This document shows positions 35,623 to 63,928 of a DNA stretch of 64,000 nt, in pieces. Within the stretch, counting starts at the first letter, position 1. The number at the start of each line of letters is the position of its first letter. The notes under the pieces are model-generated. The model saw nothing but the letters and a program-made list of their open reading frames with translations. It did no database searches and was not told the origin of the DNA. The stretch is from a virus (taxonomy: Duplodnaviria > Heunggongvirae > Uroviricota > Caudoviricetes): the IMG/VR virus record IMGVR_UViG_2651869695_000003; one strand, given 5' to 3'. Both the position numbers and the translations under genes were made by a program.

Positions 35623-35624
35623 AC

Positions 35625-41481: not shown

Positions 41482-41507
41482 TCCCCTCAGACAGTTGAGA
41501 GTTATTA

Positions 41508-43717: not shown

Positions 43718-43720
43718 AAA

Positions 43721-44047: not shown

Positions 44048-44190
44048 TTGTAGTTATCTCTCACCTCGCTGATACAGCAGGTGCAAATTGAGGGAACATC
44101 ATGTACCGCAAATCAGAAGCGGAAACATCAAAGAAGCCGAACCGATGGAGAACTGCGGAATAGGCCAGGACCAACGAATCCCCAGCCACA

Positions 44191-44221
44191 GAAACGACAA
44201 AACCCGCTCGACGGCGGGTTT
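44191..44221 (-). terminator. tR'-like rho-independent terminator (copy 2)
   Basis: Inverted copy of 2545..2575. Confidence 0.5.
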
Positions 44222-44343
44222 AAGCTGTGTGGCGAAGTAACCACTCTTAACAGATTACAATGTTTTTTGCGGACCGCGCTAATGATTTCCTCTTTTTTTT
44301 GTTGTATTTTTCACACGGTTGCTAAAATTATTTCGGATCGATA

Positions 44344-45285
44344 ATGAGTACAGAAAATAAGAATAAAACCAGGCGAGTGAGAGTTGGTTTTTTCACTGGT
44401 AATGGAAGCAAAAAATATGGCACATCTGCTGCAAAACTAGCCTTTGAGCAAATGACCACAGCAGATACTGTAACTTTTCCAATAACTTACACAACAGACA
44501 CCCCAAGTCGAGGGTTAAAGTTAGTTATTCTTCAAAAAGATACCACACTGCAATGTTACTTTGGTTACGTATCGTGGAGAAGGGAATGCCTACTACCGTT
44601 CATCGAGGATGCTACAGGTAGTGAGAGAACAATTCCTTTAAATGATAAAGATTCTGTAGTTGAAAGAACATATTTTATCTATTACTACGAAACGGACTTA
44701 TTAGCTATGACCCTCAACCATATAGGGCCCAAAGTAAATGATCTGGCATTCATTTTGTATAACAAAACTGATTTAAAAAGCGTCACTTTTGAAGCCATTT
44801 GGAAACAAGAGAGCATGAAGGAACTGCTTGAGGACGGAAATATCCTACGTAGTTTCGATCTTATAGTTGCTGCTCCAAGAAACTTTAACAAAGCTAATTA
44901 TAAGATTAAAAACCCTTTAGCTAATGAAATTATTGACATGGTTGTTGGTATGGGCGGGTCGCATCTAAGATTAAATATGCGAGGTCGGATTCGCCCGAAA
45001 AAACAAGGGTTTAACTATCTAAAAACTTCTGTCACCGATGCTATTAAGGAACTACTTGAACTTTTTCCAAAAGGTTCTGGAGGTCTAAAAATTAAAAAAA
45101 TTGATGTAACAGAGCCATCCAATAGAACGCCCAAAAGTCTACTTGACCAAGTATTGGTCAGTACAAAGACAATCATTGTCAAAAGCGGTTATCCATCCGA
45201 TTCTGATATCAGAACGGCGATGATATCTGCTAAAATTGATAACGCGAACTATCTTGCACAGTATGAGCTCGCTAGCAGAGACTAA
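44344..45285 (+). CDS. Hypothetical 313-aa cassette protein (copy 2)
   Basis: Identical inverted copy of 1481..2422; here in context of the complete prophage. Confidence 0.55.
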   Translation: MSTENKNKTRRVRVGFFTGNGSKKYGTSAAKLAFEQMTTADTVTFPITYTTDTPSRGLKLVILQKDTTLQCYFGYVSWRRECLLPFIEDATGSERTIPLNDKDSVVERTYFIYYYETDLLAMTLNHIGPKVNDLAFILYNKTDLKSVTFEAIWKQESMKELLEDGNILRSFDLIVAAPRNFNKANYKIKNPLANEIIDMVVGMGGSHLRLNMRGRIRPKKQGFNYLKTSVTDAIKELLELFPKGSGGLKIKKIDVTEPSNRTPKSLLDQVLVSTKTIIVKSGYPSDSDIRTAMISAKIDNANYLAQYELASRD

Positions 45286-45294
45286 TAACCAAGC

Positions 45295-45756
45295 ATGGAG
45301 GACACAATGAGAGAATTAGCCACTTTTCTCTGGAAATGCGTCCTCTGGATTCTGTTGACCTATGCAGCGACAAAACTGTTTAAACCGATGAAGCATGCTG
45401 ACGTACTCACAACAGCGGGGGTGCTCTCGACTATATCAGGCATCCTGTTTGGTTTTGTTCTGGCTGCAATATCTATATTTAGTAGTGCAAACAGCGATAA
45501 GGAAGGAGCAATTAATGCCCTTAAGCAAAACAACGTGTTACCAACTCTGGTAAATAGATTACTTTCAACAGGGTTAACTCTCATCGTCGCATGTATATTT
45601 CCATTGATAGCGATGTTTCTACCTGATGATGTTATTGTTGCGGGCAAACCTATTGATTTCCTGTTCATACTGTTAGGCTTATCCTCCCTTATAATTTCGC
45701 TATATACCTTCGGAAGGTGTTGGTTAGTGTTACGAAAAATCTTCCCCCACTTGTGA
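45295..45756 (+). CDS. Four-TM membrane protein (cassette gene 2, copy 2)
   Basis: Identical inverted copy of 1010..1471. Confidence 0.55.
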   Translation: MEDTMRELATFLWKCVLWILLTYAATKLFKPMKHADVLTTAGVLSTISGILFGFVLAAISIFSSANSDKEGAINALKQNNVLPTLVNRLLSTGLTLIVACIFPLIAMFLPDDVIVAGKPIDFLFILLGLSSLIISLYTFGRCWLVLRKIFPHL

Positions 45757-45791
45757 CAGGTTGGCCTCATATGGGGCCAACCTGTGCAACC

Positions 45792-46160
45792 CTAAGCGTC
45801 CATTTCAAGGTTAAAATCCAACATTGAAAGGCAACCATCAATAAATCCTTCGGCTAGTTGTATTTCTATGCGTACCAATTTTTCATCCTTTCCACGCACC
45901 TTTGCAATCTTACGCTTGGATATTCTGTATAAATAATGTGCCACAAGCAGCGAGTGCTCATCTGGCTTTTTTTGCTTTAGACGAGCAAGACAACCTTCAA
46001 TAATTAATGCATCACTATCTGAACAAGCCTGACGTGTTTTGCTTGTGTAGGGAAGAAGCCCCTTAAACCCAGCAGCTATAGGCGAATAGTCTACTCCAGA
46101 ACTATCACTCGCCGCCCATGCTCCCCAACGCTCCAGAACCATCTGAATATCACGCATCAA
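45792..46160 (-). CDS. Antitermination protein Q (copy 2)
   Basis: Identical inverted copy of 606..974. Confidence 0.7.
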   Translation of the reverse strand: MMRDIQMVLERWGAWAASDSSGVDYSPIAAGFKGLLPYTSKTRQACSDSDALIIEGCLARLKQKKPDEHSLLVAHYLYRISKRKIAKVRGKDEKLVRIEIQLAEGFIDGCLSMLDFNLEMDA

Positions 46161-46174
46161 CTTTCTCCACCAAA

Positions 46175-47170
46175 TCAGGCCAACACCCCAATCGCCAGCG
46201 CGCGATCGATAAAACGAAATATCAGCTCCAGTTGGGAGCCATACTTCTCTTCAAATGCCACGGTATCCGCATGCAGCTCGTCGTGATGCTTTCTGCACAA
46301 AGGCAACACAAAGAGGTCATGCGCTTTTGTACCCATTCCACCCTGACCGTGACCTATCAGGTGGTGGGGATCATCAGCAGGCTTTCCACAACATGCACAC
46401 GGCTGTGTCTTAACCCAGCGCGTGTACTTTTCATTAACCCAGCGGCGGCGTTTTGGGCGTAACATAAAAGACTCCAGCGACTCCGGATCCACTTTCAGCG
46501 CCAGCACCTTTTTCGCTTTATCCTGGATAATGCTGGTGGCAGGAACCGAAGGCACAAGGTCACTTTCCCGGGTGACCGCCTGCACAACAGGCTTCGGTAA
46601 TCTCAGTGCCTTACGGGCTGCACTTTCCGGTAAGGCATCCGCCAGGTCATTACGAATCAGCCACCAGCACAGTTCCGGTATTGTCACAACGTGACTATCA
46701 TCAAAACCGAGATCCCGACGCACAACAGACAACACCCAGCGGGCACAGTTATCCGTTGCCATTGATTCCAGCCGTTCCGTGAACTGATCGCGCAGCTGGT
46801 TATCGCAGTGCCAGCACAAACGGATTGCGCCCGGAGCGTGTCGCATTGTTGTCATGTTCTCGCTGTGCCAGTCGGAATGAGGCCACTGGCAGCCTTTTTC
46901 ACGAAGTAACCAGCTTTCAAGACATTCCACGCCACCAGCACGACGGATCACTGCCTCATTGCGGAATACGGCCCGAACGGCAGGATCATCCGCCAGCGGT
47001 TGTGATGCCGCCGGAACGGCACCACTGGCGAAAGATGAATAACGTTCCGGCTCAGGCTCCAGCAGGACACGCCCCTGCATAAACAGGGGCATCAACTCTG
47101 AACCTGGCCTGAACAATACGATCCCCATACGCGGGGCAATTTCAGGGGTCAGTAGTGCTCTCACGGTCAC
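46175..47170 (-). CDS. DUF968/YdfU-like prophage protein, full length (331 aa)
   Basis: C-terminal 196 aa duplicated at 1..591; Cys/His-rich C-terminus. Confidence 0.5.
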   Translation of the reverse strand: MTVRALLTPEIAPRMGIVLFRPGSELMPLFMQGRVLLEPEPERYSSFASGAVPAASQPLADDPAVRAVFRNEAVIRRAGGVECLESWLLREKGCQWPHSDWHSENMTTMRHAPGAIRLCWHCDNQLRDQFTERLESMATDNCARWVLSVVRRDLGFDDSHVVTIPELCWWLIRNDLADALPESAARKALRLPKPVVQAVTRESDLVPSVPATSIIQDKAKKVLALKVDPESLESFMLRPKRRRWVNEKYTRWVKTQPCACCGKPADDPHHLIGHGQGGMGTKAHDLFVLPLCRKHHDELHADTVAFEEKYGSQLELIFRFIDRALAIGVLA

Positions 47171-47171
47171 C

Positions 47172-47969
47172 TCAATGAACGGTATCGAGCAGCTTTAACA
47201 GCTCAGAGAATCGGGATTCGAAGAAATGCGGCTGCGTCTCGCGCGGATTTGCGGGACTGGTGATGTTCTTGCCGAACATGCAGCCTTTCGCTGTCAGCGA
47301 CCAGAATTTTTTGATGTTGTTAATCGCGGTACGGCTGTATCGTTCGCGCTGCTCGACGATCCCCAGCTTCACCATCTGGTGATATGCCTGATTAGCCGTC
47401 AGGCGGATACCATACTGTTTCAGCAGTGCACTCAGTGACAGCGTAGGGCGACTTGAGCCATCGTGTGCATCAGCAGGAGCATCAATGGCATAGCGCGGTG
47501 CCAGATTCGGTAAGCCAACAGCCTCCTGAAGTTTCTGACAGGCTCCAAGCACTGAAGAGTTAGACAGATTTAACTCCCGGCGCATAAAGTCCAGCAGAAT
47601 CACGCCAGCCTGCATCTTGTCAGCAGCCTGTCCGGATAATTTTTCAGGTGCGCTGGTTACCATGTCGAAAGTACGGATCACCTTCAGATGGAATGACGGG
47701 CTGATCCACATTGCATAGGCATACACCAGTTCTTTGCAGACATACGTCCCCTGGTTATTTCCGCCACGAATAACGTTAACTGGCGCTATATTGACCGAGT
47801 TGCAAATCTGCAACTCGCTTATTAAACGTTCGGTTTGCTCATTGCGGAGCCAGAATGCAGGCTTATGTTTATCCAGAGAACCGGCAGCCCTGTGCAAATC
47901 GTTCAGGCTGTAACGCCCATAAGCATCACGACGAACTTCAATACCATCAATAACCATCAGATTATTCAT
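47172..47969 (-). CDS. KilA-N domain protein (antirepressor-like)
   Basis: N-terminal region (MNNLMVIDGIEVRRDAYGRYSLNDLHRAAG...) resembles KilA-N/Bro-N domains; nin-region position. Confidence 0.6.
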   Translation of the reverse strand: MNNLMVIDGIEVRRDAYGRYSLNDLHRAAGSLDKHKPAFWLRNEQTERLISELQICNSVNIAPVNVIRGGNNQGTYVCKELVYAYAMWISPSFHLKVIRTFDMVTSAPEKLSGQAADKMQAGVILLDFMRRELNLSNSSVLGACQKLQEAVGLPNLAPRYAIDAPADAHDGSSRPTLSLSALLKQYGIRLTANQAYHQMVKLGIVEQRERYSRTAINNIKKFWSLTAKGCMFGKNITSPANPRETQPHFFESRFSELLKLLDTVH

Positions 47970-47988
47970 ACTTCGTTTCTCCTCTTAA

Positions 47989-48378
47989 TCAGGCGGCTGC
48001 ACCCGCCGGTTTCTCGTACTTACTGATAGTGATCTCGACCTTCCCTTCCGGGATAACCGGTCCCCACTCCACCAGCATTCTTTTCACCTGACTGTCGTCT
48101 TCCCACACACCCGCGTGGGTCAGGGCGTCAAACAGCGCCTTGTTATAGTTGTCCAGATCGCGGATCCGGTTATCCGGAGGAAACAACACGATCTCCACTG
48201 AAGCAGGTGCCGACGTTGGTTTTGGCAGACGACGTAACTGCTCAAATATTGCTGCACACGCCGCGCTCTGGAATTTGCGCCCCGCCGCGCTTATCAGGCT
48301 CTTACCAGCAAACGCCCCTTTGTTGGGGTGTCGCCAGTACGTGTTCACGCTGGGCGGAAAAGGCAGGATCAGCTTCAT
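47989..48378 (-). CDS. rusA: Holliday junction resolvase RusA
   Basis: PFPPSVNTYWR ... RDLDNYNKALFDALTHAGVWEDDSQV matches conserved RusA motifs. Confidence 0.8.
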   Translation of the reverse strand: MKLILPFPPSVNTYWRHPNKGAFAGKSLISAAGRKFQSAACAAIFEQLRRLPKPTSAPASVEIVLFPPDNRIRDLDNYNKALFDALTHAGVWEDDSQVKRMLVEWGPVIPEGKVEITISKYEKPAGAAA

Positions 48379-48701
48379 ACTTTCAGGCCCCTCTCATGTA
48401 ACCAGTGGGCTGCACGCAGCCTGGCGTTTTCCTCACCGGCAAGCAGTGAGCGGATAATCCCGACCGCCTCGCTGTCGTCGTCCTTCACCGCGGTATGAAG
48501 CGTTATCCCCCGTGCCACGCCACGCTTTATCGTGATGACGCCTTTTTTCTCCAGTGCGCGAAGATGCTCCACCGCTGCATTCACTGAACGGTATCCCAGC
48601 ATGGTAGCCACCTCCTGATTGGTTGGTGGGAAGCCACGTTCTTTCTGGTAAGAAATCAGCATATCCAGCACCTGCTGCTGGCATTGAGTTAACGTCGTCA
48701 T
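48375..48701 (-). CDS. LexA-like N-terminal DNA-binding domain protein (no peptidase domain)
   Basis: LTQCQQQVLDMLISYQKERGFPPTNQEVATMLGYRSVNAAVEHLRALEKKGVI resembles LexA winged-helix domain; start taken at internal Met coupled to upstream stop (TAATG). Confidence 0.55.
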   Translation of the reverse strand: MTTLTQCQQQVLDMLISYQKERGFPPTNQEVATMLGYRSVNAAVEHLRALEKKGVITIKRGVARGITLHTAVKDDDSEAVGIIRSLLAGEENARLRAAHWLHERGLKV

Positions 48702-49195
48702 TAAGCCCCCACGTAATTCCCTGACAGATACCACTCTTCACCTGATGCAGCCCGCTTACTGCTTTTCCGTAAACACCGTTCACGACGCGCCAGAAAATTG
48801 TTTCGTTCTGGCTGGGAGTGGCTTTCACGGAATGCCGCCATCCACACCGTTGCAGCACGACGGTATAAGCCCCTGGACTCCAGTTCTTCCGCCTGGCGGG
48901 TCAGGCACAAAATCACCCGCGGGTCGTTAGTGCCGACATAGAAATTGCGCACAGGTCTGGTTTCACGAACTGGTTGTGGTTCCGGATCCTGCGCTCTCTC
49001 AGTCAGGCGCGGGAAATGTCTGTGTGTATCTCCTTCACAACGGTGAGCCACACGCCCACTCTGACGTAACTTGCTTGCTGACTGCAGAACGCGCTGCCGT
49101 GAGTAACCTGCAAAAGCATCCGCAATGTCTCCGGAAGTACAGCCCGGATGGGCTTCAATGAATTTCTGAACGTCATTCAAAAGACTCATGCTCAC
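48701..49195 (-). CDS. Hypothetical early-region protein (164 aa)
   Basis: ORF translationally coupled to flanking genes; function not recognised. Confidence 0.4.
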   Translation of the reverse strand: MSMSLLNDVQKFIEAHPGCTSGDIADAFAGYSRQRVLQSASKLRQSGRVAHRCEGDTHRHFPRLTERAQDPEPQPVRETRPVRNFYVGTNDPRVILCLTRQAEELESRGLYRRAATVWMAAFRESHSQPERNNFLARRERCLRKSSKRAASGEEWYLSGNYVGA

Positions 49196-50133
49196 CCCCT
49201 GAATCCTGCCGGGATCTGGCTGTAGTCCACATTGTCGTAACTGGCTTTGAAGTACGGGTCTTCGCGTTTTTCTGTGTACGTGCTGACGGACGGCGATAAG
49301 CGCAGGGAAAGCTCATCCCATTTTTCCCGCAGCTTCGACGGGCTGAGCACGTTACGGCACCAGAACGGATCGCGGCTGACGCGGCTGTACATCTCGCAGA
49401 TTTGTTTGTGAGTACGACCATCCTGCACACACATCAGGCGAATTTCGTTTGCCCAGGCTGTCCAGTTCGGTTCTTTGGGACGAACCACCTCGCCGTCACA
49501 TTCGGCAGCCTGCTCGTACAGGGCGATGATTTTTTTCCAGAGCCACTGTGCGCAGGTCAAATCATCCTGCGTCCCCCACTGGCGCTTTTTAGGGCTGAAT
49601 ACAACCGCATCAGGATGGCGAGTTAAAAAATCCTGTTCAGCCGTCTGCGTGTCCGGTTGCGAAGCGTCCGGACGAGAAGGTTTTTTATCTGACGGATCAT
49701 GTTTTGATTTTACTGACGGATCCCCGCCAGATTCTGACGGGTGAAAACCCGCTTTTTTGCCAGATTTCGACGCATCAAATTTTGACGGGTCAGATTTTGA
49801 TGCGTCAGATTTTGACGGGTCAGAATCTGACAGTTGAGAAAATGCCGCTGCCTGAAGCTTCGCAACGTTAAGCTGATAAACATTCGACGCATTGCGGTTA
49901 CCCTGGCGACGCGCCTTACGCGTTAACCAGCCTTCTGCTTCCAGCCGTGCGATAGCCGTTCTGACGGTACTCATCCCCGCGCCAATCTGACGGGCAATGG
50001 TTTCAATTGATGGCCAGCACACACCTTCGTCATTACTGAAATCAGCCAGGCGGGCCATAATTGCCACGCTGGATAACTTCATGCCTGATGCAGCGCAACC
50101 ATCCCATACATAGCCGGTTAATTTAGTGCTCAT
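49192..50133 (-). CDS. Replication initiation protein (O-like; HTH N-terminus, internal pentapeptide repeats)
   Basis: N-terminal winged-helix-like region; internal tandem 15-bp DNA repeats; position downstream of cro/cII-like genes. Confidence 0.55.
   Translation of the reverse strand: MSTKLTGYVWDGCAASGMKLSSVAIMARLADFSNDEGVCWPSIETIARQIGAGMSTVRTAIARLEAEGWLTRKARRQGNRNASNVYQLNVAKLQAAAFSQLSDSDPSKSDASKSDPSKFDASKSGKKAGFHPSESGGDPSVKSKHDPSDKKPSRPDASQPDTQTAEQDFLTRHPDAVVFSPKKRQWGTQDDLTCAQWLWKKIIALYEQAAECDGEVVRPKEPNWTAWANEIRLMCVQDGRTHKQICEMYSRVSRDPFWCRNVLSPSKLREKWDELSLRLSPSVSTYTEKREDPYFKASYDNVDYSQIPAGFRG
49728..49835. repeat. Iteron-like tandem 15-bp direct repeats inside replication gene (candidate ori)
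   Basis: CAGATTTTGAYGSGT units at 49728, 49761, 49776, 49791, 49806, 49821 read directly. Confidence 0.5.
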
Positions 50134-50142
50134 GACCGACCT

Positions 50143-50481
50143 CTATTTCCCTGAATTTACGACGAAACTGTTCGAGCGGACTGAAGCATTCATGCTCATA
50201 ACCTTCGCGGAGGTAGATAACCCGTTGTGTTTCCGGCTCCCAACGAATGACTCTGACGGGTACTCCGTAGTGATCTTTGAACCAGCGGTTAACTTGTCGC
50301 AAAGGACTGTCTCCTTCTGCCGGTTGAAATCACCCACAGCCCACTCTGCAAAGCTGTGGGTTACAATTTCCCTGTCACCTGGTACATTCACTGCATAGCA
50401 ATATTCCACCTTCGCTTTTCCACCCGGAACAGGAAGCGCAATCAGTTGCGAGCGACGGTAGTGTGTTGTTAAACTGTTCAT
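50143..50481 (-). CDS. Hypothetical early protein (112 aa)
   Basis: Start overlaps upstream stop; otherwise unsupported. Confidence 0.3.
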
Positions 50482-51047
50482 GCGTTAGTTTCTCCACAAC
50501 CAGAAGCAATCGACGCCACGACGCCCGGAGCTGCACACTCGCGGGCGTCATTACTTTCTGAAATGCAAAAAATTTTGTAGACCAGTGCTGCATGCTCCTG
50601 CAGCTTCGAAATTGAGAGATACAGCTCGTCGTTAATTGCTGTCTTCTCATGCGGTTCCACTACACCGTCTTCGATTGCTGAACGAATCTGTTTTGAATAA
50701 CTGCCGATCTGTTCAATGACTTCCAGCAGACGCTGGTTAATATCGGCGTTGTCCACATCCTCGACGTCAGGAAGAGACACAAAGACGCCATTTGCAGACT
50801 GCGCCACAGCATCAGCAATGAAGTGAGTGCCACCAGCACGCTGTAAAACCATTGCCCATCCCAGCGGGAAAATCTGATCGCCATCTGCACGAAGGCGGTT
50901 GAATAAAGCGTTTTCTGTTACATCGAGCCAGTCAGCCGCTTCAGCGTAACCACCCGGCAACGCCGCGATAGTTTTTCTGACAGCTTTCACGTACCACTCA
51001 GGCTGTTTTTCTATTTTCCAGTGATGCTTACCCACAATTAGCCTCAT
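50478..51047 (-). CDS. CII-like phage regulatory protein (putative)
   Basis: 189 aa directly downstream of cro-like gene; weak resemblance to enterobacterial phage CII-type regulators. Confidence 0.4.
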
Positions 51048-51078
51048 CGTTCTGTGGTTAAAAATTGAAAGTGTTCTG

Positions 51079-51279
51079 CTAATCTTTCGGATAGATATCC
51101 GGTCTTAAGTCAGATTTCGTAATTGCACCTGACGTGCATTGCTCAAGTTTTTTAGCCAGCACAAAACTGGCTTTTTTATAGCCATTGAAAACCAGCCGTA
51201 AGTAGCCAGGTGTTGAGCCAACTTTTCCGGCCAACTCGCCCTGCTGTTCTTTGGTTAAAGAGTCCCAATACGCTTTCAT
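51079..51279 (-). CDS. Cro/YdaS-like HTH regulator
   Basis: 66-aa HTH protein divergent from cI-like repressor; start at first ATG of the longer ORF 51079..51582. Confidence 0.6.
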   Translation of the reverse strand: MKAYWDSLTKEQQGELAGKVGSTPGYLRLVFNGYKKASFVLAKKLEQCTSGAITKSDLRPDIYPKD

Positions 51280-51282
51280 ACA

Positions 51283-51354
51283 ATATGTACCTCCGATGTA
51301 CATATTACATGATTGAAATGAACCTTCAAGATACTTGTACCTTAACGGTACAAG
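51283..51354. promoter_or_regulatory. Operator region (OR-like): two TGTAC-N7-GTACA inverted repeats between cro and cI
   Basis: ATATGTAC-N7-GTACATAT at 51283..51305 and CTTGTACC-N5-GGTACAAG at 51334..51354. Confidence 0.45.
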
Positions 51355-51369
51355 GGTTTTAATTTCGTT

Positions 51370-52044
51370 ATGAAAACAATCCATGACATCCGGCGGTCTA
51401 ACGCCAGAAAACTGAGAGATGGTGTTGGCGGGAATTCTTCCTTTGCCACTATGATTGATCGCGAGCCAACCCAGACCAGCAGGTTTATGGGAGATGGTGC
51501 TACTAAAAATATCGGTGACAGCATGGCACGACACATCGAAAAATGTTTCGACCTGCCTGTCGGATGGCTCGATCAAGAACACCAGACAACGAACATCACA
51601 AAAAAACCTGATGTTTCAATCACTAATAAACAAATCACATTAGTCCCTGTCATATCATGGGTACAGGCCGGAGCATGGAAAGAAGTTGGATATTCTGAGG
51701 TTGATTTGAGCACAGCAGAAACGTATCCCTGCCCTGTACCCTGTGGGGAAATGACTTATATCTTGCGGGTGATAGGTGATTCAATGATTGATGAGTACCG
51801 CCCGGGAGACATGATTTTTGTCGATCCTGAAGTACCTGCCTGCCACGGTGACGACGTTATTGCATTGATGCACGATACAGGTGAAACCACCTTCAAAAGG
51901 TTGATAGAAGATGGGACACAGCGTTATCTCAAAGCGTTAAACCCAAACTGGCCTGAGCCTTACATTAAGATCAACGGTAATTGCTCTATAATTGGTACAG
52001 TGATTTTCTCAGGAAAACCAAGAAGATACAAAATCAAAGCCTAA
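51370..52044 (+). CDS. CI-like repressor (HTH + S24 LexA-type peptidase domain)
   Basis: C-terminal ...VIGDSMIDEYRPGDMIFVDP... autocleavage domain motif; divergent from cro; no SD (possibly leaderless like lambda PRM transcript). Confidence 0.8.
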   Translation: MKTIHDIRRSNARKLRDGVGGNSSFATMIDREPTQTSRFMGDGATKNIGDSMARHIEKCFDLPVGWLDQEHQTTNITKKPDVSITNKQITLVPVISWVQAGAWKEVGYSEVDLSTAETYPCPVPCGEMTYILRVIGDSMIDEYRPGDMIFVDPEVPACHGDDVIALMHDTGETTFKRLIEDGTQRYLKALNPNWPEPYIKINGNCSIIGTVIFSGKPRRYKIKA

Positions 52045-52057
52045 TCAATGTTTATGA

Positions 52058-52079
52058 ACCTGCTTCGGCAGGTTTTTTT
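52058..52079 (+). terminator. Rho-independent terminator after repressor gene
   Basis: ACCTGC-TTCG-GCAGGT followed by TTTTTTT. Confidence 0.55.
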
Positions 52080-52083
52080 ATAC

Positions 52084-52115
52084 TTGACAATGTACCTTTG
52101 AGATACATAATGTAC
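52084..52115 (+). promoter_or_regulatory. PL-like promoter with overlapping operator half-sites
   Basis: TTGACA (52084..52089), 16-bp spacer, CATAAT (52106..52111); TGTAC/ATACA half-sites overlap. Confidence 0.45.
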
Positions 52116-52216
52116 CCAAGCGAAACAACGAACAGGCAGGACGCCCACGAAGTAGCCGCCTGGGGCATATGAAGTCCAGGATGATTCGTTGAGTCATGTT
52201 GTGCCACTAGGCACTC

Positions 52217-52513
52217 ATGTTAAAGCAGGTGTATGAAATGAAAGTCCAGATTTTAAACAATAACTGTGAAGTCGTTTGGTCATACGACATAGCCGCCCCT
52301 GTAGATCAGAGCGGCGATAGCTGGACCAATGGGAAACATCAGATTATGGCTGGAGTTGTGTTCTCTTTACGCCGTGCTTTGGAACAGGCTGAAGTATTTC
52401 CATCAGACCCTGAATGGAAATGGCCTTTTTCTATTTGTCCAAATTCGGAGAGCACATTTCAGAAAATTGGTCAGAAAGTCGCACTCGAAGAGCATCAGCC
52501 AACTGTTTCCTGA
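52217..52513 (+). CDS. Hypothetical early-left protein (98 aa)
   Basis: First ORF downstream of PL-like promoter; overlaps a competing minus-strand ORF. Confidence 0.3.
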   Translation: MLKQVYEMKVQILNNNCEVVWSYDIAAPVDQSGDSWTNGKHQIMAGVVFSLRRALEQAEVFPSDPEWKWPFSICPNSESTFQKIGQKVALEEHQPTVS

Positions 52514-52676
52514 TTTTTTCAGGTAACTCGTCGGCATCGCAGAAACAACAACGCTCGATCATGTTGAAAGCCGATTCGTAGAACTGTTTTTGCTGAGTGT
52601 CGCTGAGACAGGAAAAGAGCGACGTTACGATGATTTTATTAATTGCATTATCAAGTTCTTTTTCATCAAAAGTCAT
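52431..52676 (-). CDS. Hypothetical protein (81 aa), alternative to overlapping plus-strand ORF
   Basis: Protein-like composition; only one of the two overlapping ORFs is likely real. Confidence 0.25.
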   Translation of the reverse strand: MTFDEKELDNAINKIIVTSLFSCLSDTQQKQFYESAFNMIERCCFCDADELPEKIRKQLADALRVRLSDQFSEMCSPNLDK

Positions 52677-53095
52677 TTGATTTTCCTTTTATGTATACGG
52701 GCTTAAAAGGATACCACCGAGCCTGAAGTGGTGAAAAGACAGGCACATAACAGCTAAGTATTTTCAACCAGAGAGAATCCTTAGCGTTGTGGTGAATGCG
52801 GCTCAGCGCACGCGGGTTAAGGTTGAGGCTGACAGTCGACCTTCTGTGGATACCCACCCGTCTGGTGTGCAACCTTCGCCAGGCACCGGGAGGCACCCGG
52901 CACCACAACTTTATGCTGTGTGTAGTCCTGGCGGTACCAGTTTGTACCCTTGCTTCCGGCTGGTACCGTCCTTTTTACAAAACAGAGAAGAGCATCACCG
53001 GACGACGGGCTCATAACCCAATCCATCCGGGCGGCTGCCACCGCAGGTGTTCTTCTCTGTTTTGTGGAGAAACTAATCGGCCTTGCAGGGTCGAT

Positions 53096-53476
53096 ATGAT
53101 GAGGAGCAGCAAAATGGCTAGCGAACGCAGTACTGATGTGCAGGCATTTATCGGGGAGCTGGACGGCGGCGTATTTGAAACCAAAATCGGCGCAGTTCTC
53201 AGTGAAGTCGCTTCCGGTGTGATGAACACGAAAACCAAAGGTAAGGTCTCACTCAACCTGGAAATCGAACCATTTGATGAGAACCGTGTGAAAATCAAAC
53301 ACAAACTCTCATATGTTCGCCCGACTAACCGCGGGAAAATTTCTGAAGAAGACACCACCGAAACGCCGATGTATGTCAATCGCGGTGGTCGCCTGACTAT
53401 TCTGCAGGAAGACCAGGGACAATTACTGACTCTTGCCGGTGAACCTGACGGAAAACTCCGCGCAGCAGGTCATTAA
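53096..53476 (+). CDS. Hypothetical early protein (~126 aa)
   Basis: Start taken at internal MMRSSKMASER...; upstream part of ORF 52796..53476 looks non-coding. Confidence 0.4.
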   Translation: MMRSSKMASERSTDVQAFIGELDGGVFETKIGAVLSEVASGVMNTKTKGKVSLNLEIEPFDENRVKIKHKLSYVRPTNRGKISEEDTTETPMYVNRGGRLTILQEDQGQLLTLAGEPDGKLRAAGH

Positions 53477-53541
53477 TATCGTTTTTAATTAACTGATTAT
53501 TTATCTCATCACTGAATATTTTTATATAGTGAGGACTTATT

Positions 53542-54366
53542 ATGTCTCAGAACTTAGACGCAACCGCAATTAATCAAATCCATGCCCTTATTTCTGCTCA
53601 GGGTGTTAATGAAATTATCAGTAAGATTGGTGCCGACGCAGTGGCATTACCTGAAAATTTCCGCATTCATGATCTGGAAAAATTTAATTTAAATCGCTTC
53701 CGTTTCCGTGGTGCGCTTTCCACTGCCAGCATCGATGACTTTACCCGTTATTCTAAAGATCTTGCAGATGAAGGCACCCGCTGCTTTATCGATGCCGATA
53801 ATATGCGAGCCGTCAGTGTGCTTAACCTGGGTACTATTGATGAACCAGGTCACGCAGATAACACTGCCAATCTCAAACTGAAAAAGACAGCACCGTTCTC
53901 TGCCCTGTTGTCTGTTAACGGCGAGCGTAACTCCCAGAAGTCACTGGCAGAATGGATTGAAGACTGGGCCGACTACCTTGTGGGCTTTGATGCTAATGGT
54001 GACGCCATTCAGGCAACCAAAGCGGCTGCGGCGATCCGTAAAATCACAATTGAAGCGAACCAGACCGCTGATTTTGAAGATAATGACTTCAGCAGCAAAC
54101 GCTCCCTGATGGAGTCTGTCGAAGCGAAGACCAAAGACATTATGCCAGTGGCATTTGAATTTAAATGCGTTCCGTTTGAAGGTCTGAAAGAACGTCCGTT
54201 TAAATTACGCCTCAGCATTATCACTGGCGATCGTCCTGTACTGGTTCTGCGCATTATTCAGCTGGAAGCGGTACAGGAAGAAATGACTAACGAATTTCGT
54301 GATCTGCTTGTTGAGAAATTCAAGGACAGCAAAGTAGAAACCTTTATTGGTACTTTCACCGCCTGA
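53542..54366 (+). CDS. YfdQ-like prophage protein (DUF2303)
   Basis: 274 aa; recalled resemblance to E. coli prophage YfdQ family; followed by YfdR-like gene. Confidence 0.5.
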
Positions 54367-54493
54367 TTTCATTACTGCAAATGCCCCTGCGGGGGCATTT
54401 ATGGAAACGTAATTAACTCAATAATCACCGGATGGTGAGGGCTTCCTTTTACCAGAATTCAGCGCGGTGCAGTGCATATACGTGGAGAACAAA

Positions 54494-55018
54494 ATGTCAT
54501 TTATTAGAACTTTTTCCGGGAAGCATTTTTATTATGAAAGGATAAATAAAGACGACATCGATATTAACGATATCGCGGTTTCCCTTTCAAATATCTGTCG
54601 CTTTGCCGGTCATCTTTCGCACTTCTACAGCGTCGCCCAACATGCGGTTCTTTGCAGCCAGCTGGTGCCGCAGGAATTTGCTTTTGAAGCGTTAATGCAT
54701 GATGCAACAGAAGCGTATTGCCAGGACATTCCCGCACCACTGAAACGCCTTCTTCCTGACTATAAACGAATGGAAGAAAAAATAGACGCCGTAATCCGTG
54801 AGAAATACGGGTTACCCCCGGTTATGAGTACGCCCGTGAAATATGCCGATCTCATCATGCTGGCAACCGAACGCCGCGATCTCGGGCTTGATGATGGCTC
54901 TTTCTGGCCCGTACTGGAAGGTATCCCGGCAACAGAGATGTTCAAAGTTATTCCACTGTCGCCAGGCCATACCTATGGGATGTTTATGGAACGCTTTAAA
55001 GAGTTAACTGAGTCGTAA
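54494..55018 (+). CDS. HD-domain phosphohydrolase (YfdR-like 5'-deoxynucleotidase)
   Basis: H...HD...E motifs (HFYSVAQHAV ... MHDATEAY ... D); start at internal Met. Confidence 0.55.
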   Translation: MSFIRTFSGKHFYYERINKDDIDINDIAVSLSNICRFAGHLSHFYSVAQHAVLCSQLVPQEFAFEALMHDATEAYCQDIPAPLKRLLPDYKRMEEKIDAVIREKYGLPPVMSTPVKYADLIMLATERRDLGLDDGSFWPVLEGIPATEMFKVIPLSPGHTYGMFMERFKELTES

Positions 55019-55126
55019 AAATCAGCACGTACGAATTCAAACTCTGCCATAAAAGAACATATAAGTAATTTATTAACATATAGATATAGGTTATATTACA
55101 AATTGAAAAATTATTGGAGAGCAACA

Positions 55127-55993
55127 ATGAATCAAAATCCATTCTCATTCTATGACTTTCTTGGATATTTAATACCAGGTGGTTTTTTTATCCTATTAAT
55201 GTATTTCTGTGGTTTGACATTCGATCTAGATATTGTTATTGACTTAAGTGAATTGCTCAGAGGTCAAAGTCAAATCTTTGGCATTTTGAACTACGCTTCA
55301 ATAGTTATTATATCTTATATAGCTGGACATTTTATTTCTATCACGTCAGCATTTTTTATCGAAAAATACATGAATAAAGAATTAGGATATCCTTCCAAAT
55401 ATCTATTTAAAAAATTGATAGATACCTCAGAAAGCATTTGTAGCCCATCATGCGATGAGAGAAGCGCTGATAAAAAAACAAAAATAAAGAATCGCATAAT
55501 CAAATGCGTATTATGTCCAATAATACTATGGGATTTTATAACACAAAAACTATGTTATTCTCAATCTCTACCATTTCATTTAGCTAATACAACATGGTTA
55601 ATGATCAAAGAAGGTTATGAGAAAAAGTTCATAACAAATCGCCAATTATTACAAGATAAAAACGGACTTGATGATGATCTCTTCAGATTGGCATATCATT
55701 ATGTTTATGAGTTTTCAAAACAACATCAAACAAAAATTCAAAACTATGTTGCATTATATGGTTTTTGCAGAAACATATGTTTAATCTTTATAATTTCATT
55801 TTGGGTATCAGTTCCAACCTTTATTTATCGATTATGTACTCATAGTGATTATCTTTATAGTTTACTTTCAATAATGCTTAGCTTTTTCTTCGTCTATGTC
55901 TTCTATGTTGGTTTTGTTAAATTTTATAGAAGATATACTTTAGAAGTATTAATGGCATTTGCTGTACTTCAAAGTAACGACACTATTCGTTAA
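55127..55993 (+). CDS. AT-rich multi-pass membrane protein (cargo)
   Basis: Several hydrophobic helices; GGAGA 6 nt upstream of ATG 55127; very low GC. Confidence 0.5.
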   Translation: MNQNPFSFYDFLGYLIPGGFFILLMYFCGLTFDLDIVIDLSELLRGQSQIFGILNYASIVIISYIAGHFISITSAFFIEKYMNKELGYPSKYLFKKLIDTSESICSPSCDERSADKKTKIKNRIIKCVLCPIILWDFITQKLCYSQSLPFHLANTTWLMIKEGYEKKFITNRQLLQDKNGLDDDLFRLAYHYVYEFSKQHQTKIQNYVALYGFCRNICLIFIISFWVSVPTFIYRLCTHSDYLYSLLSIMLSFFFVYVFYVGFVKFYRRYTLEVLMAFAVLQSNDTIR

Positions 55994-56034
55994 TAATGTT
56001 GCTCCCGTGTGCAGACGGGATAATGGAGAAACGT

Positions 56035-56241
56035 ATGCTGAACCTCGATTGTGTTCCTATCTCAACTTATTGCAAAGAAACTGGCGAAACTCCTGAAGCA
56101 ATAAACAAACGTGTACAGCGCGGTGTTTGGCGTGAAGGTGTTCAGGTTTTAAAGGTTGAAGGCGTTAAGGAGAGGTGGATTGATCTTAGTGAGGTTGCAA
56201 AATGGGCCAGACAAAACTGCTCAAACTACCGCGCGGCGTAA
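56035..56241 (+). CDS. Excisionase-like DNA-binding protein
   Basis: Small basic protein immediately upstream of and overlapping integrase. Confidence 0.55.
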   Translation: MLNLDCVPISTYCKETGETPEAINKRVQRGVWREGVQVLKVEGVKERWIDLSEVAKWARQNCSNYRAA

Positions 56242-57377
56242 CAATCAGGAAACACCGCCAGGGAGAAACGATCAATATAACTTTCACCTACAAAGGAGTT
56301 AGATGTCGTGAGCCACTTTCCAATCTGGAAGTAACACCAAAGAACATTAAATACGCCGAGCGTACACTCGGCGAAATCCATAATAAGATCGAAAGGGGAA
56401 CATTCATTTATGCAGAATATTTTCCCCGTTCTGCTCGTTTGAAAATTTTTGGTAATGCTGCCACTGGCAAAACGGTAAAAATGTACCTGGACGAATATCT
56501 TGAAATCTGCGAAACGAGGAAACTATCACCATCCACGATTGGTGGTTATAAAAAATGCCGGAGTGCGTTAGCCTCGCTTCACATTTGCCCTGCAAGTGAA
56601 TTAACACCAGCAACCCTGAAAGCGTGGATTCAAAGCCAAAAAACGACCTTAAAAACCATTCGCAACCAGTTATCTTTCCTGCGGTCAGCACTTGATGAAG
56701 CCGTAACCGATGGGGTACTTCAAATTAATCCCGTATCGTTAGTAACTGCTTCGCGCTACCAAAGTGATAAGTCAGAAGCAGAAAGCAGCTACGTGGTTGA
56801 TCCGCTATCACCAGCAGAAGTTGATGCATTACTAGCAGCAGCCGGAAACAAACAATGGGAGAATCTGTTCCGGTTCGCTATACATACAGGTCTGCGTAGT
56901 TCTGAATTATGTGCCCTTCGATGGCGTGATATTGACTTTGTAGGGATGACTGCCCACGTCCAGAGCGCCAGTGTTGTTGGTGTAATCAAAGGTACCAAAA
57001 CAAAAGCAGGTACTCGAAAAGTTGAACTGACAGATGAAGCAATGTCTGCACTAATAAATCAGAAACCGTTCACTTTCATGAAGGACGCGACTGTCTTTGA
57101 AGATCCAAAAACCAATAAACCTTGGGCCAGCGCAGACGCCATAAGAAAGAAGGCATGGGTGCCAACTTTACGTAAAGCCGGAGTCCGTTACCGTAATCCT
57201 TATCAAACTAGACATACATTTGCTACAAAACACATTAGTCAAGGTGTTAATTTGTTTTGGTTAGCCGCTCAAATGGGGCATAAAGGACCAGAAATGCTAT
57301 TTAGGCATTACGGCCGTTATCTTAAAGATTATGATAACAATAGCACACACAATCATTTGATAAATTGTACTAATTAA
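56202..57377 (+). CDS. Tyrosine integrase (phage integrase family)
   Basis: C-terminal catalytic region with R...HxxR...Y pattern (TRHTFATKHI ... LFRHYGRY). Confidence 0.9.
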   Translation: MGQTKLLKLPRGVTIRKHRQGETINITFTYKGVRCREPLSNLEVTPKNIKYAERTLGEIHNKIERGTFIYAEYFPRSARLKIFGNAATGKTVKMYLDEYLEICETRKLSPSTIGGYKKCRSALASLHICPASELTPATLKAWIQSQKTTLKTIRNQLSFLRSALDEAVTDGVLQINPVSLVTASRYQSDKSEAESSYVVDPLSPAEVDALLAAAGNKQWENLFRFAIHTGLRSSELCALRWRDIDFVGMTAHVQSASVVGVIKGTKTKAGTRKVELTDEAMSALINQKPFTFMKDATVFEDPKTNKPWASADAIRKKAWVPTLRKAGVRYRNPYQTRHTFATKHISQGVNLFWLAAQMGHKGPEMLFRHYGRYLKDYDNNSTHNHLINCTN

Positions 57378-57416: not shown

Positions 57417-58235
57417 ATGAATAACACAGATTTAATAAAAATGTTAGGTTACTCAATTACCACTACCGACTTCATAGCCATAATAAGTGTCATAATTGCA
57501 TTTTTTGCAATGTACCAAACATGGCAGCAAAGAATAATTTCAAACAAACCTCAAATCTTACCTAAGAATATAAAATTCACATGGATGCACAGAGATAACT
57601 TGAAATTATTTAAGAACATAGAAATATCACCAACCACTTTGAATATAGAGCTTCTCAACATAGGTCTTGGCCCAGCTATAAAAATAAACCACTACTGGTC
57701 TGAAGAGTATGAGAAATATATTAAGATAAACAAATTCAAAATAGATAATAACAACACACAAAAATCACATGAGATATTTTTGCAAAATGAAGAGTTTTTT
57801 ACAATCAAAGACAACAATAACTTCTTGAATGTTGATATTTTTGGTAGAGGTCCGCAAAAACATAATAGCTTTCAAAAAAAAGGAACTTTGATAGAATTTA
57901 TAACTCCGAATATTAAAGACAAAGAGAAAACAACCATACCATTTCCCCCATTGGTGCCGGAATTAATTGGTAATTATCTTGTAACCACCTCCATCTCATC
58001 GTTTATAGGGCCGGACCTTATCCTTGAATATAGAGATGTAAACAATAAGAAAAGAAAGAAAATTTTCACAACAGAATTTAAGAGCGTATCTTTTTACGGA
58101 AATGGCTTAGATCTAATTTTAGACATAGATATTCTTTTCACATCCAAACAGTGTTGGACACAGGTTGTCCTAGAAAGGATACGCAAAAGCTACGCAGATT
58201 TTATGGATGAGCATGATTTTAATAAAAACAGATAG
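57417..58235 (+). CDS. AT-rich hypothetical protein with N-terminal TM anchor (cargo between int and att)
   Basis: 272-aa ORF, Asn/Lys/Ile-rich, very low GC. Confidence 0.5.
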   Translation: MNNTDLIKMLGYSITTTDFIAIISVIIAFFAMYQTWQQRIISNKPQILPKNIKFTWMHRDNLKLFKNIEISPTTLNIELLNIGLGPAIKINHYWSEEYEKYIKINKFKIDNNNTQKSHEIFLQNEEFFTIKDNNNFLNVDIFGRGPQKHNSFQKKGTLIEFITPNIKDKEKTTIPFPPLVPELIGNYLVTTSISSFIGPDLILEYRDVNNKKRKKIFTTEFKSVSFYGNGLDLILDIDILFTSKQCWTQVVLERIRKSYADFMDEHDFNKNR

Positions 58236-58242
58236 TTAAAAA

Positions 58243-58279
58243 AATTCGGACTCGGGTTCAACTCCCGCCAGCTCCACCA
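58243..58279 (+). other. Partial tmRNA (ssrA) 3' end = prophage att core / junction
   Basis: TTCGGACTCGGGTTCAACTCCCGCCAGCTCCACCA matches my recollection of the E. coli tmRNA 3' end; no tmRNA body upstream. Confidence 0.6.
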
Positions 58280-58326
58280 AAATTCTCCATCGGTGATTAC
58301 CAGAGTCATCCGATGAAGTCCTAAGA

Positions 58327-58358
58327 GCCCGCACGGCGCAAGCCCTGCGGGCTTTTTT
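58327..58358 (+). terminator. Rho-independent terminator (native ssrA-downstream terminator)
   Basis: GCCCGCA...TGCGGGC hairpin followed by TTTTTT. Confidence 0.5.
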
Positions 58359-58412
58359 GTGCCTTGAATTTGTCCCGCGAAGTCTGATGCCAACTAATTA
58401 AATCCGAACCTT

Positions 58413-58540: not shown

Positions 58541-60485
<1,945 letters not shown>

Positions 60486-61721
60486 AGTGACACCAAGGAA
60501 GCGGACTACGTTCTCTATGATGGCGATGGCCTTGAGCTACTTATCAAATCCAGCGGGAGTAAAATCTGGCAGTTTCGCTACATTCGCCCTGTCACCAAGA
60601 AACGTGCGAAGAAGAGCATAGGCCCCTACCCGTCAGTTACGCTTGCCGATGCCAGAAACTACCGGGCAGAGTCACGCTCTCTCCTGGCGAAACAAATCGA
60701 TCCACAGGAACATCAGCAAGAACAACTTCGCAGTTCGCTTGAAGCTAAAACCAATACTTTCCAACTCGTGGCTGAACGATGATGGAATGTGAAGAAAGCC
60801 AGCGTGACAGAGGACTATGCCGACGATATCTGGCGCTCTATTGAAGAGATGTCTTTCCTGCAATTGGCGACGTTAGCGTTACAGATATTAAAGCTCACAC
60901 ACTGGTTCAGGCCGTCCAACCGGTTCAGGCCAGAGGAGCAAAACCGTTTGTCGCCTGTGCCAGCGCATTAATGAGGTCATGACCTATGCCCAAAACACAT
61001 GGCTGATTGATGCTGTTCCCAGCGTTAATATTGGTAAAGCCTTCGAGAAGCCTCAGTAAAAGAACATGCCCAGCATTCGACCGGATCAGCTACCTCAACT
61101 GATGCAGACAATGCGAACAGCCAGCATTAGCCTTTCCACACGCTGCCTGTTCATGTGGCAACTTCTTACTATTACCCGCCCTGCCGAAGCGGCTGAAGCT
61201 CGCTGGGAAGAGATAGACATAGAAGCACAAGAGTGGAAGATTCCTGCAGCACGCATGAAAACGAACCGCGACCATACTGTTCCATTGTCAGATGAAGCAA
61301 TTGCGATACTGGAGATGATGAAGCCGTTAAGTGGAAATCGAGAATTTATCTTTCCCAGCCGCATCAAGCCAAACCAGCCGATGAACAGTCAGACCGTAAA
61401 CGCATAGCTAAAACGCGCAGGTTTTGGTGGGGTGCTCGTTTCACACGGCCTGCGATCTATCGCCAGTACAGCCCTTAATGAACAAGGCTTTCCGCCTGAT
61501 GCCATTGAGGCAGCACTTGCCCATGTAGACAAGAATGAAGTTCGTCGCTCTTATAACCGCAGCGATTACCTGGAGCAGCGTCGTCCAATGATGCAGTGGT
61601 GGACGAATTTTGTTCAAGCGGCAGATCGTGGAAGTATTATTGAAGGTGGGATGAAAGGAATGCGATTGGTTGGATAACGATTCACTCTGCCTACGTTATT
61701 ACAAATAGCGTCCGATTAGAG

Positions 61722-62641
61722 GTGTGATTCATAGACATCGTTTCAATTTTCTCAGTTCAAGTTCAAGCTTGTAATTCTGTTCCTGTATATGCTCTTCATT
61801 GGGCTGATACTTTGCATGAACGGCATCGGAGTATGGTGTTTTCTCAGCAAGTTCAAAGTAGCGCTCCATCGGAGTTTTACCGTTGTGAGCGCTATGAGGA
61901 CGTTCCCAGTTATAGTAATGCTGCCATTCTGCCTGCAGTTCCTTCAGGTCATCAGCAGAAAGATCTACGGTAGCGTAAGACTCTGCTTTGTCTGTCTTTT
62001 GGGAACGTTCAACCTTTCCGTTAAGATGAGGTGACGCTGGCTTATTTGGACGAAACTTGATGCCGTATTATTTTAATCTTTCCTGCACTTTAACGGCAAA
62101 AAATTCTCTTCTCCGGTCTGTCTGAGAGCGCTATATCGGGAAAGGCATTTCTTCAATAACACAATCAATAAAATCCAGTGAGTTTACCGCCGTGCGACGA
62201 GAGTAGAGCCTCAGGACTCTGTAGCGAGTGCAATCATCAACAGATGTGTACTGATATAAGCCGGGGCCAATTTTACAGGTATCCATCTGAACCCGATCAC
62301 CGGGAACAGGGCGTTCGTAGCGAATGAAATCAACTTCACGCCGAAATTTAACAACAGGTTTAACCTGATTCTGGCAAAGGACTTTGTGGATTGTTGCTAT
62401 TGCCAGTGAGTCGTTTTAACTCGCTTTGAATACGTCTTGCACCCAGATTTCGCTGAGAACGTAACTCCAGAATCAGAGCGACTTCGCAAGTACCGGTTTT
62501 CGTTGATGGTGAACGCTTGAGGCGACGGCATATAAATCCCGCATCACCGGACGTTTCATAGAATTTTACCCACTGTAGCCGCTGCTGAATTTCCCTGTAC
62601 ATAGTGAGGTATTATAGTGAAACGATGTCTATGAATCACAC
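61722..62641. mobile_element. Degenerate IS (rve/DDE transposase fragments, IS481/IS3-like) with perfect 24-bp terminal inverted repeats
   Basis: GTGTGATTCATAGACATCGTTTCA at both ends in inverted orientation; minus-strand translation contains ...YNWERPHSAHNGKTPMERY (transposase C-terminus) but frame is broken. Confidence 0.55.
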
Positions 62642-62781
62642 AATTCAAAAATGACGATCAAACAATTCTGTGAACAGGAACATATTCTGGTGTCCACAGA
62701 AGGTCATTTTACTGGTGTAACGGATGAGGTACTGGCTGAGTTAAATCTCAAGCGACGTGTCGGTATTCTGTTAACAGCTTT

Positions 62782-63003
62782 TTGGTGATACCAGACATAT
62801 TACGATTAACTGACATGATTGCTGTTGTACCCAGCCGTATGGTCCCGAACAACAGTGACCTTACTATCATTCCCTTACCGATTAAAATTCCAGGCTTCAC
62901 TAAAAGCATGGCGTGGCACGAGCGTACTCATCATGATCCAGCCCATCAATGGATTCGCGCTTTGTGCTTTGAGATAAACCAGCACTCCACAACGGTGATA
63001 TAA
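62782..63003 (+). pseudogene. LysR-family regulator 3' fragment (putative)
   Basis: C-terminal-domain-like sequence in two frames, beginning right after the IS. Confidence 0.35.
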
Positions 63004-63138
63004 GTTTTCTTATTCAGATCATAAAGAATAACGATTGGCATTATAACACAATAATCTCAATAATTGTTGCTGCCACATTGAATACGGCTTCTGAAGCAAC
63101 ATGCTCAGCACAATTAATTACCGTAACTGGAGAAATTT

Positions 63139-63635
63139 ATGAACGAGATTAACTGGCCTGAAGGTTTTGTTCCTGGTTTTACTGATAACTTTGTTTCCAA
63201 TGAAATGATTATCTCTGGTCTTAATGTTAAAGATATCTGGCCGCTTCTGAGTCAGCCATTCCTGTGGCCAAAAATTGTGCTGATATTCGCTTTTACGATA
63301 ACAAAAAGCCAGAACTGGAAAATGGGGTGCGTTTCTATTTCAAAACCTTTGGTTTTCCTGTTGAAGCTCAGGTTGTGGAGTTTGTCCCACCGATGGAAGG
63401 CAAACCTGCTCGTCTGGCCTGGCACGGATGGTCCGGTGAAGAAAATACTACTCAACGTCTCGATGTACATCATGCATGGTTACTGGAGGATCTTTCCAGT
63501 AACCGGGTACGTATCCTGACGCAGGAAACACAGAACGGAGTTCCGGCAAAAGAACTGGCAAATACTCGCCCGAACCCAATGCTGAATGGTCACCAGGCAT
63601 GGCTTGATGGCCTAGTTGAAGCAGCAACGAAATAA
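63139..63635 (+). pseudogene. Frameshifted small protein (SRPBCC-like?)
   Basis: Two overlapping ORFs (63139..63519 and 63264..63635) that together give one ~165-aa protein. Confidence 0.35.
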
Positions 63636-63662
63636 TGACTGACTTTCTACTGTCATATCACT

Positions 63663-63685
63663 AAGGTTGCGCTTAATCGCAACCT
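63663..63685 (+). terminator. Hairpin followed by A/T tract downstream of frameshifted gene
   Basis: AGGTTGCG-CTTA-ATCGCAACCT then TCAAAAATTTTT. Confidence 0.35.
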
Positions 63686-63928
63686 CAAAAATTTTTATCA
63701 CTTTTTTACTCTTACTATTAGCCACGGGTAAAAAGTGGCGTTTTCGCAACCAGTGAACGGTCACCTAAAAAATCACCGAAATTCTTATCAGTAGCTGAAG
63801 TAATGGTATTGCCGAGGACCATGTAAATCGTCTGAAAATGATGAAACTACAGATGTATGGTTGTTCTGGATTCGAATTACTGAGGCGAAGGGAAATGAGT
63901 CCACTGGCATGAAAATCTCCCCTAAGTT

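Follow-up and report, generated by a model that had tools for sequence, protein, structure and literature searches.

A truncated ssrA 3′ end as the very probable attR of a phiNP-type prophage, followed downstream by the decayed EspC island left end

The DNA analysed here (hereafter the window; the whole stretch of 64,000 nucleotides) was found to be draft contig JHST01000046.1 of assembly GCA_001266115.1, with identical coordinates. A literature search for a paper associated with the WGS accession JHST00000000 found none. The features of the window are listed in Table 1. From left to right it contains an inverted copy of part of a prophage, an invertible tail-fibre segment, the prophage body and its integration module, a short fragment of the tmRNA gene ssrA and, beyond this, an integrase pseudogene split by an insertion sequence.

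Table 1. Features of the 64,000-nt window, with coordinates relative to its first nucleotide.
Feature	Position	Strand	Details
Exact reverse complement of 24227-46765	1..22539		22,539 nt at 100%, starts at contig end
Invertible tail-fibre segment (Sv, tfa, tfa′, Sv′)	22540..24226		1,687-nt hinge
Prophage body: tail, head, terminase, lysis, Q, replication, cI, early-left operon	24227..55995		
Excisionase, xis	55996..56241	+	PHROG 2917, E=8e-45; position as xis in phiNP
Tyrosine integrase, phiNP type	56202..57377	+	Pfam Arm-DNA-bind_2 and Phage_integrase
ORF272, cargo in the int/attP slot	57417..58235	+	N-terminal TM helix, ~33-40% GC
Phage-arm (P) relic of ssrA homology	58242..58252	+	9/11 identity to ssrA; diagnostic T at 58252
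att core: ssrA T-stem, T-loop, acceptor 3′ strand, CCA	58253..58280	+	Holds phiNP 25-bp core, 58255-58279
Native ssrA downstream sequence with intrinsic terminator	58281..58359	+	Hairpin 58326-58353, T-run to 58358; A25 identity; terminator-like site
P4-type integrase of EspC island, first 19 codons	58484..58540	+	MARQTKPLSVKEIESAKPK; matches N-terminus of intact int in L004
IS100 (IS21 family)	58541..60492	-	istB 58607-59341, istA 59342-60406; Pfam IstB_IS21, rve
P4-type integrase pseudogene, remainder, frameshifted	60493..61677	+	Arm-DNA-bind_3 60459-60782; Phage_integrase fragments 61066-61407, 61432-61677
Further left part of EspC island	61678..63928		Collinear with E2348/69 to ~460 bp before espC

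The original prediction described a match of about 35 nt to the 3′ end of tmRNA, without the tmRNA body, immediately after the last phage gene. Positions 58242-58279 read AAATTCGGACTCGGGTTCAACTCCCGCCAGCTCCACCA and are followed by AAATTCTCCATCGGTGATTACCAGAGTCATCCGATGAAGTCCTAAGAGCCCGCACGGCGCAAGCCCTGCGGGCTTTTTTG. When aligned with the last 38 nt of E. coli ssrA (nt 326-363) from A25, E2348/69 and Res13, 36 of the 38 positions were identical. Counting from the 3′ end, the match consists of 27 exact nucleotides, a mismatch, a further 7 exact nucleotides (TTCGGAC) and a second mismatch, the first of these mismatches being a T in the window at 58252 against a G in ssrA. The stop codon of ORF272 lies 7 nt upstream of the fragment, and no similarity to ssrA was found to the left of 58242. 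The 27-mer CGGGTTCAACTCCCGCCAGCTCCACCA is present in a single copy in the 64-kb window (58253-58279) when up to three mismatches are allowed; hence this search of the whole window yielded no second copy of the att core. None would be expected by chance (0 in 100 shuffles).

No tRNA or tmRNA gene was found in the window by either ARAGORN or Rfam at gathering thresholds. A permissive scan with RF00023 gave a score of 26 bits (gathering score 47), with high posterior support only for the T-arm, the acceptor 3′ strand and CCA; the confident alignment was confined to the last ~45 nt, and the first T-stem pair was flagged as broken. The 3′ T-arm, acceptor 3′ strand and encoded CCA of E. coli ssrA are retained at the fragment (27/27), whilst the full tRNA-like domain and the mRNA-like domain (tag ORF and pseudoknots) were absent by ARAGORN and Rfam, and the fragment is not a tmRNA gene. 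The lack of a tmRNA gene, taken with an RF00023 match restricted to the 3′ end, therefore identifies a fragment without the tmRNA body, as had been predicted. An Rfam match to ‘IsrM’ at 58270-58358 was rejected as it covers the terminator hairpin only and scores 32 bits against a gathering score of 376. The remaining low-score Rfam matches were disregarded (E-values >1). Downstream of the fragment, 58280-58400 is identical to the sequence that follows intact ssrA in A25, including the terminator hairpin and T-run (58326-58359), which bears out the earlier description of this terminator as native-looking.

The integrase encoded upstream of the fragment shares 91.4% amino acid identity, over 98% of its length, with the Int of phiNP, a temperate phage of Citrobacter rodentium. 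The attP and attB of phiNP have been mapped experimentally to the 25-bp 3′ terminus of ssrA, TGGTGGAGCTGGCGGGAGTTGAACC, and its integration duplicates this 25-bp core and reconstitutes ssrA (PMC6456863). The reverse complement of the phiNP 25-mer is exactly positions 58255-58279 of the window, GGTTCAACTCCCGCCAGCTCCACCA. Moreover, the last 25 nt of the phiNP genome record (OR565852.1) are the same core, downstream of xis, int and a cargo gene. The layout of xis, int, cargo and attP is thus common to phiNP and this prophage, as is the overall synteny, that of a myovirus with a lambdoid early region. However, the int/attP slot is occupied by ORF272 in this prophage and by an AAA ATPase in phiNP. 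The two also differ in the extent of their exact ssrA identity, which is 27 nt in this prophage and 25 nt in phiNP; on its int side, the attP of phiNP resembles ssrA imperfectly over ~10 further nt, with the mismatch at another base. Imperfect homology is to be expected of the P arm, which after integration belongs to the non-functional attR copy and can drift freely.

At the DNA level, similarity to phiNP extends over 4.3 of 35.7 kb, comprising parts of the early region and xis-int. With only 12% of the prophage aligning, phiNP was rejected as a whole-genome relative. The structural genes of phiNP are unlike those of this prophage, which are of the SfII/SfI/SfIV type. The exact int-ORF272-attP module was found at the DNA level in no phage of the collection, with phiNP reaching 82% over xis-int only. 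The proposed use of the ssrA 3′ end as attB is supported by the phiNP-type Int, by the exact match to the mapped core and by the layout of the Res13 prophage described below. We infer that this phage uses the ssrA site from its 91%-identical integrase together with the comparative junctions.

ORF272 had no match in Pfam, NCBIfam, PADLOC or the PDB sequences, and its PHROG (7259) is of unknown function; a single-sequence AlphaFold2 model was unusable (pLDDT 36). An identical ORF272 protein adjoins the ssrA fragment in at least 10 other assemblies. ORF272 is a candidate moron for exclusion or defence. Upstream of xis, an ORF of 296 aa (55103-55993, + strand) matches PHROG 12528, also of unknown function. 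Its one PADLOC match, to the membrane protein Csx27, is weak (E=1.4e-5), and it has no Pfam domain.

The structural module of the prophage is 97-98% identical at the nucleotide level to SfII, SfI, SfIV and vB_EcoM-689R6, and this also holds for much of the early region. Matches to the Shigella phages SfII, SfI, SfIV and SfV and to Escherichia phage vB_EcoM-689R6 end at ~55013, before xis-int-ORF272-attP. Sf phages use tRNA-Thr (thrW) as their integration site and have gtr genes beside attP. Judged by nucleotide similarity, the prophage is a mosaic, an Sf-like myovirus with a phiNP-type integration module, as is indicated by the end of the Sf matches at ~55013 and by the confinement of phiNP similarity to 4.3 kb. 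Between the Q antiterminator and the lysis genes there are two ORFs of 313 aa and 153 aa on the opposite strand (44344-45756, + strand; mirrored at 1010-2422, - strand). The pair has a local GC content of ~0.41 and matches only PHROG 7651 and 8552, both of unknown function. In Res13 the same slot contains a KAP-family NTPase, and the Q/lysis slot looks like a second hotspot for cargo or defence genes.

The invertible segment forms the hinge between the prophage and its mirrored copy. It encodes alternative fibre C-termini and Caudo_TAP chaperones on opposite strands. On either side it has one of two inverted 26-bp sites, CTCTCGAAAACCTTGGTTTGGGAGAA (22512-22537 and 24229-24254), which we take to resemble hix/gix. 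Alternative fibre C-termini and chaperones on opposite strands are likewise found in the Hin/Gin/Pin/Cin segments (Mu G, P1 C and e14 P). In contrast to Mu G, P1 C and e14 P, however, the contig has no invertase gene, and perfect identity continues beyond the 25-bp inverted repeat to a length of 22.5 kb. A tblastn search of the window with the Res13 recombinase found no invertase gene; in Res13 this gene adjoins the segment. Complete genomes match the hinge and only ~20 nt of the second arm. Their inverted repeat is ~20-25 bp and its far side leads to the invertase gene. The palindrome of arm, segment and arm′ was found in no complete E. coli genome or phage record searched.

The 22.5-kb inverted repeat is most likely an assembly fold-back artefact, because the mirrored arm starts at the contig end and short reads could not have resolved a perfect repeat of 22.5 kb. 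In a culture containing both orientations of the segment, reads would support both fibre junctions and an assembler could exit the segment into the same arm that it came from. That the inverted duplication is instead real, a Gin/Pin-type invertase having recombined non-cognate sites of two identical prophage copies, we consider improbable. If, for instance, two copies lay in direct orientation on the chromosome, such an event would invert a large stretch of it, leaving an arm-G-arm′ palindromic joint and, reciprocally, a pin-G-pin′ joint, and would look the same in the contig as an artefact; if true, it would mean that a phage host-range switch enzyme was rearranging the host chromosome.

With the repeat read as a fold-back, the contig lacks attL and intact ssrA, and the ssrA-proximal 7-8 kb of the prophage is missing. 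The original prediction called for an intact ssrA and another att copy in the full genome, and held that the lack of ssrA within a prophage length on the other side would count against it. Intact ssrA and the other att copy were found in Res13, 43 kb away, and neither is present in this window. Formally, therefore, the window has no ssrA within a prophage length. This does not refute the model, since the fold-back of the contig at the invertible tail-fibre segment accounts for the absence of attL, the invertase gene and intact ssrA.

Other strains supply both occupied and empty forms of the site. The Res13 prophage is collinear with the prophage body described here and has the same int, ORF272 and attR arm, and its host retains an intact ssrA, beside smpB, 43 kb from the fragment. 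At the tail-fibre end of this prophage the order is tail genes, invertible segment, serine recombinase, umuDC, other cargo and then intact ssrA. Empty sites were found in A25 and E2348/69, where intact ssrA is joined directly to sequence identical to the window from 58280 onward. The comparison with empty-site strains that had been suggested thus gave intact ssrA fused to the same right flank. The att core is exact in attR, in attL (Res13) and in attB (A25, E2348/69). All lysogen attR sites examined have T in place of G in the first T-stem pair, whereas attL (Res13) and attB (A25, E2348/69) keep G. The T at 58252 is therefore derived from the phage, and the fragment is a hybrid P-core-B′ site rather than a broken gene. 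The same difference places strand exchange 3′ of 58252, inside the 27-28-bp block of identity.

These comparisons bear on a reading in which the fragment is what was left of ssrA after deletion or rearrangement of the tmRNA body, the strain having lost ssrA. Such a loss would account for the absence of an intact tmRNA gene from the 64 kb and of the expected attL end from the contig. It is nevertheless very improbable, as all the lysogens examined show the core joined to this same phage arm, T mismatch included, the core is the mapped phiNP site, and Res13, with the same junction, keeps an intact ssrA at the other end of its prophage. Moreover, the missing attL is explained by a fold-back that starts at the contig end.

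The suspicious 22.5-kb perfect fold-back on the same contig also raises the question of whether the junction between phage and ssrA fragment is itself an assembly chimera. This we regard as extremely unlikely, since the ORF272-core junction is identical in at least 10 other assemblies, and the full junction, from ORF272 through the core to the native terminator, is also present in draft assembly L004 and in the complete genome Z0117EC0098. The match for Res13 and UID2309220013 extends only to the core. With both alternatives weighed, we hold with high confidence that 58242-58359, judged from these sequence comparisons, is the attR of a phiNP-type prophage inserted in the ssrA 3′ end, with the decayed EspC island left end just downstream.

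Two further observations concern the junctions of related prophages. At the Res13 attR (L001, 24506-24650) and in L008 (~10839-10884), the core is followed by P′-arm-like sequence, TCATGATTGGACGG..., and not by the native terminator; L008 has in addition a small deletion within the core. This attP-like P-core-P′ joint in Res13 and L008 suggests a relic of an earlier, related tandem prophage. In E. coli Z0117EC0098 (L018, NZ_CP098195.1 1336500-1386400), an identical xis-int-ORF272-attR is attached to a lambda-like siphovirus structural module and is followed by a P2-like prophage. Z0117EC0098 shows the ssrA integration cassette to be exchanged as a module among unrelated phage bodies.

Beyond the terminator, the window is collinear with EPEC E2348/69 from the ssrA 3′ end toward espC (58242-63928, 5.7 kb) at 99.4% identity; the identity to A25 over the same region is 99.7%. 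The EspC pathogenicity island, 15.2 kb in size, is located at ssrA according to the summary of Mellies et al. 2001 given in PMC7545054. In E2348/69 and A25 the island abuts intact ssrA directly, whereas here the prophage intervenes. The contig ends ~0.5 kb short of the start of espC, which lies beyond the contig end. Collinearity with E2348/69 stops 72 nt before the end of the window and ~97 nt before the end of the contig, and the assembly probably broke because of a repeat or IS boundary at this point (63929).

The P4-type integrase pseudogene noted at this position was recovered as N-terminal codons, an Arm-DNA-bind_3 domain and catalytic fragments, and was found to be split by IS100, an interruption that the original prediction had not mentioned. 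IS100 is flanked by a 5-bp duplication, CCAAG (58536-58540 and 60493-60497), and has imperfect terminal inverted repeats at 58540-58568 and 60465-60493. Its identity to the copy that A25 has at this site is 99.2%, and it has an early nonsense codon in istB (MALAG* compared with MALAGQ in A25). The E2348/69 copy, again at the same site, is likewise annotated as defective, which argues for an old, immobile insertion shared by descent. When IS100 was removed in silico, the remainder of the gene aligned to an intact 415-aa integrase in three different frames; in the A25 and E2348/69 annotations the pseudogene carries a frameshift and an internal stop. Given the IS100 insertion and the three frames, an intact, potentially functional P4-type integrase is not present at the locus. 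The remnants of a second integrative element reported beyond the junction are, on this collinearity, the decayed left end of the EspC island.

The predicted landing of the prophage beside an older ssrA-associated island agrees with this degenerate right flank. The prophage probably joined the tandem array at the ssrA hotspot after the island, the simplest reading being that the element nearest to the intact gene is the latest to arrive. The island is degenerate and, in other strains, is not preceded by the prophage, which fits an older resident. In tandem arrays at tRNA and tmRNA genes, elements are stacked and an ssrA 3′-end copy delimits each one, Z1323HEC0423 being an example; there, a P4-like satellite bounded by another ssrA 3′ fragment lies between intact ssrA and the same EspC island. 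Res13, with ypjA of CP4-57 after its attR, is another example of stacking, and in other assemblies the present prophage lies ahead of different, intact P4-type integrase islands. In CP4-57 and P4-like elements at ssrA, a P4-type integrase lies directly 3′ of the ssrA end, as it does at this locus. The neighbour of the fragment here differs from those elements, however, in being a full-size tailed prophage with a non-P4 (Arm-DNA-bind_2) integrase.

Since this same 3′ end is the target of the P4-type integrases of ssrA islands, and the island int starts 205 nt downstream, the fragment might be considered primarily the attL of the EspC island, with the prophage having entered an island-borne site and not ssrA proper. 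We consider this unlikely as a separate explanation, because the attL of the island before phage entry and the intact ssrA 3′ end are the same DNA, and the distinction is semantic.

Under the preferred reading, that of an attR in the ssrA 3′ end, a temperate myovirus with an SfII/SfV-like body and a phiNP-type xis-int-attP would integrate at ssrA by site-specific recombination of the tyrosine-recombinase type. The phage attP would carry a copy of the ssrA 3′ end and is expected to read ...AAATTCGGACT-CGGGTTCAACTCCCGCCAGCTCCACCAA-P′ arm; the expected attB would be identical to that of A25. Strand exchange would take place inside the 27-28-bp block of identity, CGGGTTCAACTCCCGCCAGCTCCACCA(A), with an overlap that is probably the 7-nt T-loop, flanked by the inverted T-stem halves CGGG and CCCG. 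Such a placement follows the general pattern for tRNA-targeting integrases, and the exact cleavage positions are likewise putative. At attL, the ssrA body and core would be joined to the far end of the phage, that of the tail fibres and invertase, and ssrA would be reconstituted; intact ssrA is presumably still at the missing attL in this strain. At attR, the int-proximal phage arm and core would be joined to the native ssrA terminator, giving the fragment seen here, and this would be followed downstream by the former neighbour of ssrA, the EspC island with its degenerate left end.

Integration of the phiNP type at ssrA, the presence of the EspC island at ssrA and tandem arrays at tRNA and tmRNA genes are all established, and the finding is in this respect already known. 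For this contig, the right boundary of the prophage can now be set at 58252/58253-58280 and the integration module named as phiNP-type, with a site at the T-loop and 3′ end of ssrA. The contig to the left of ~nt 22,540 is not to be trusted, as a reversed duplicate of the prophage hides its true ssrA-proximal end. In this prophage family, the int/attP and Q/lysis slots carry variable genes with candidate anti-phage or fitness functions. With the neighbouring remnant named as the EspC island's left end, the host can be called EPEC-like, and the locus is an example of how mobile elements stack at the ssrA hotspot.
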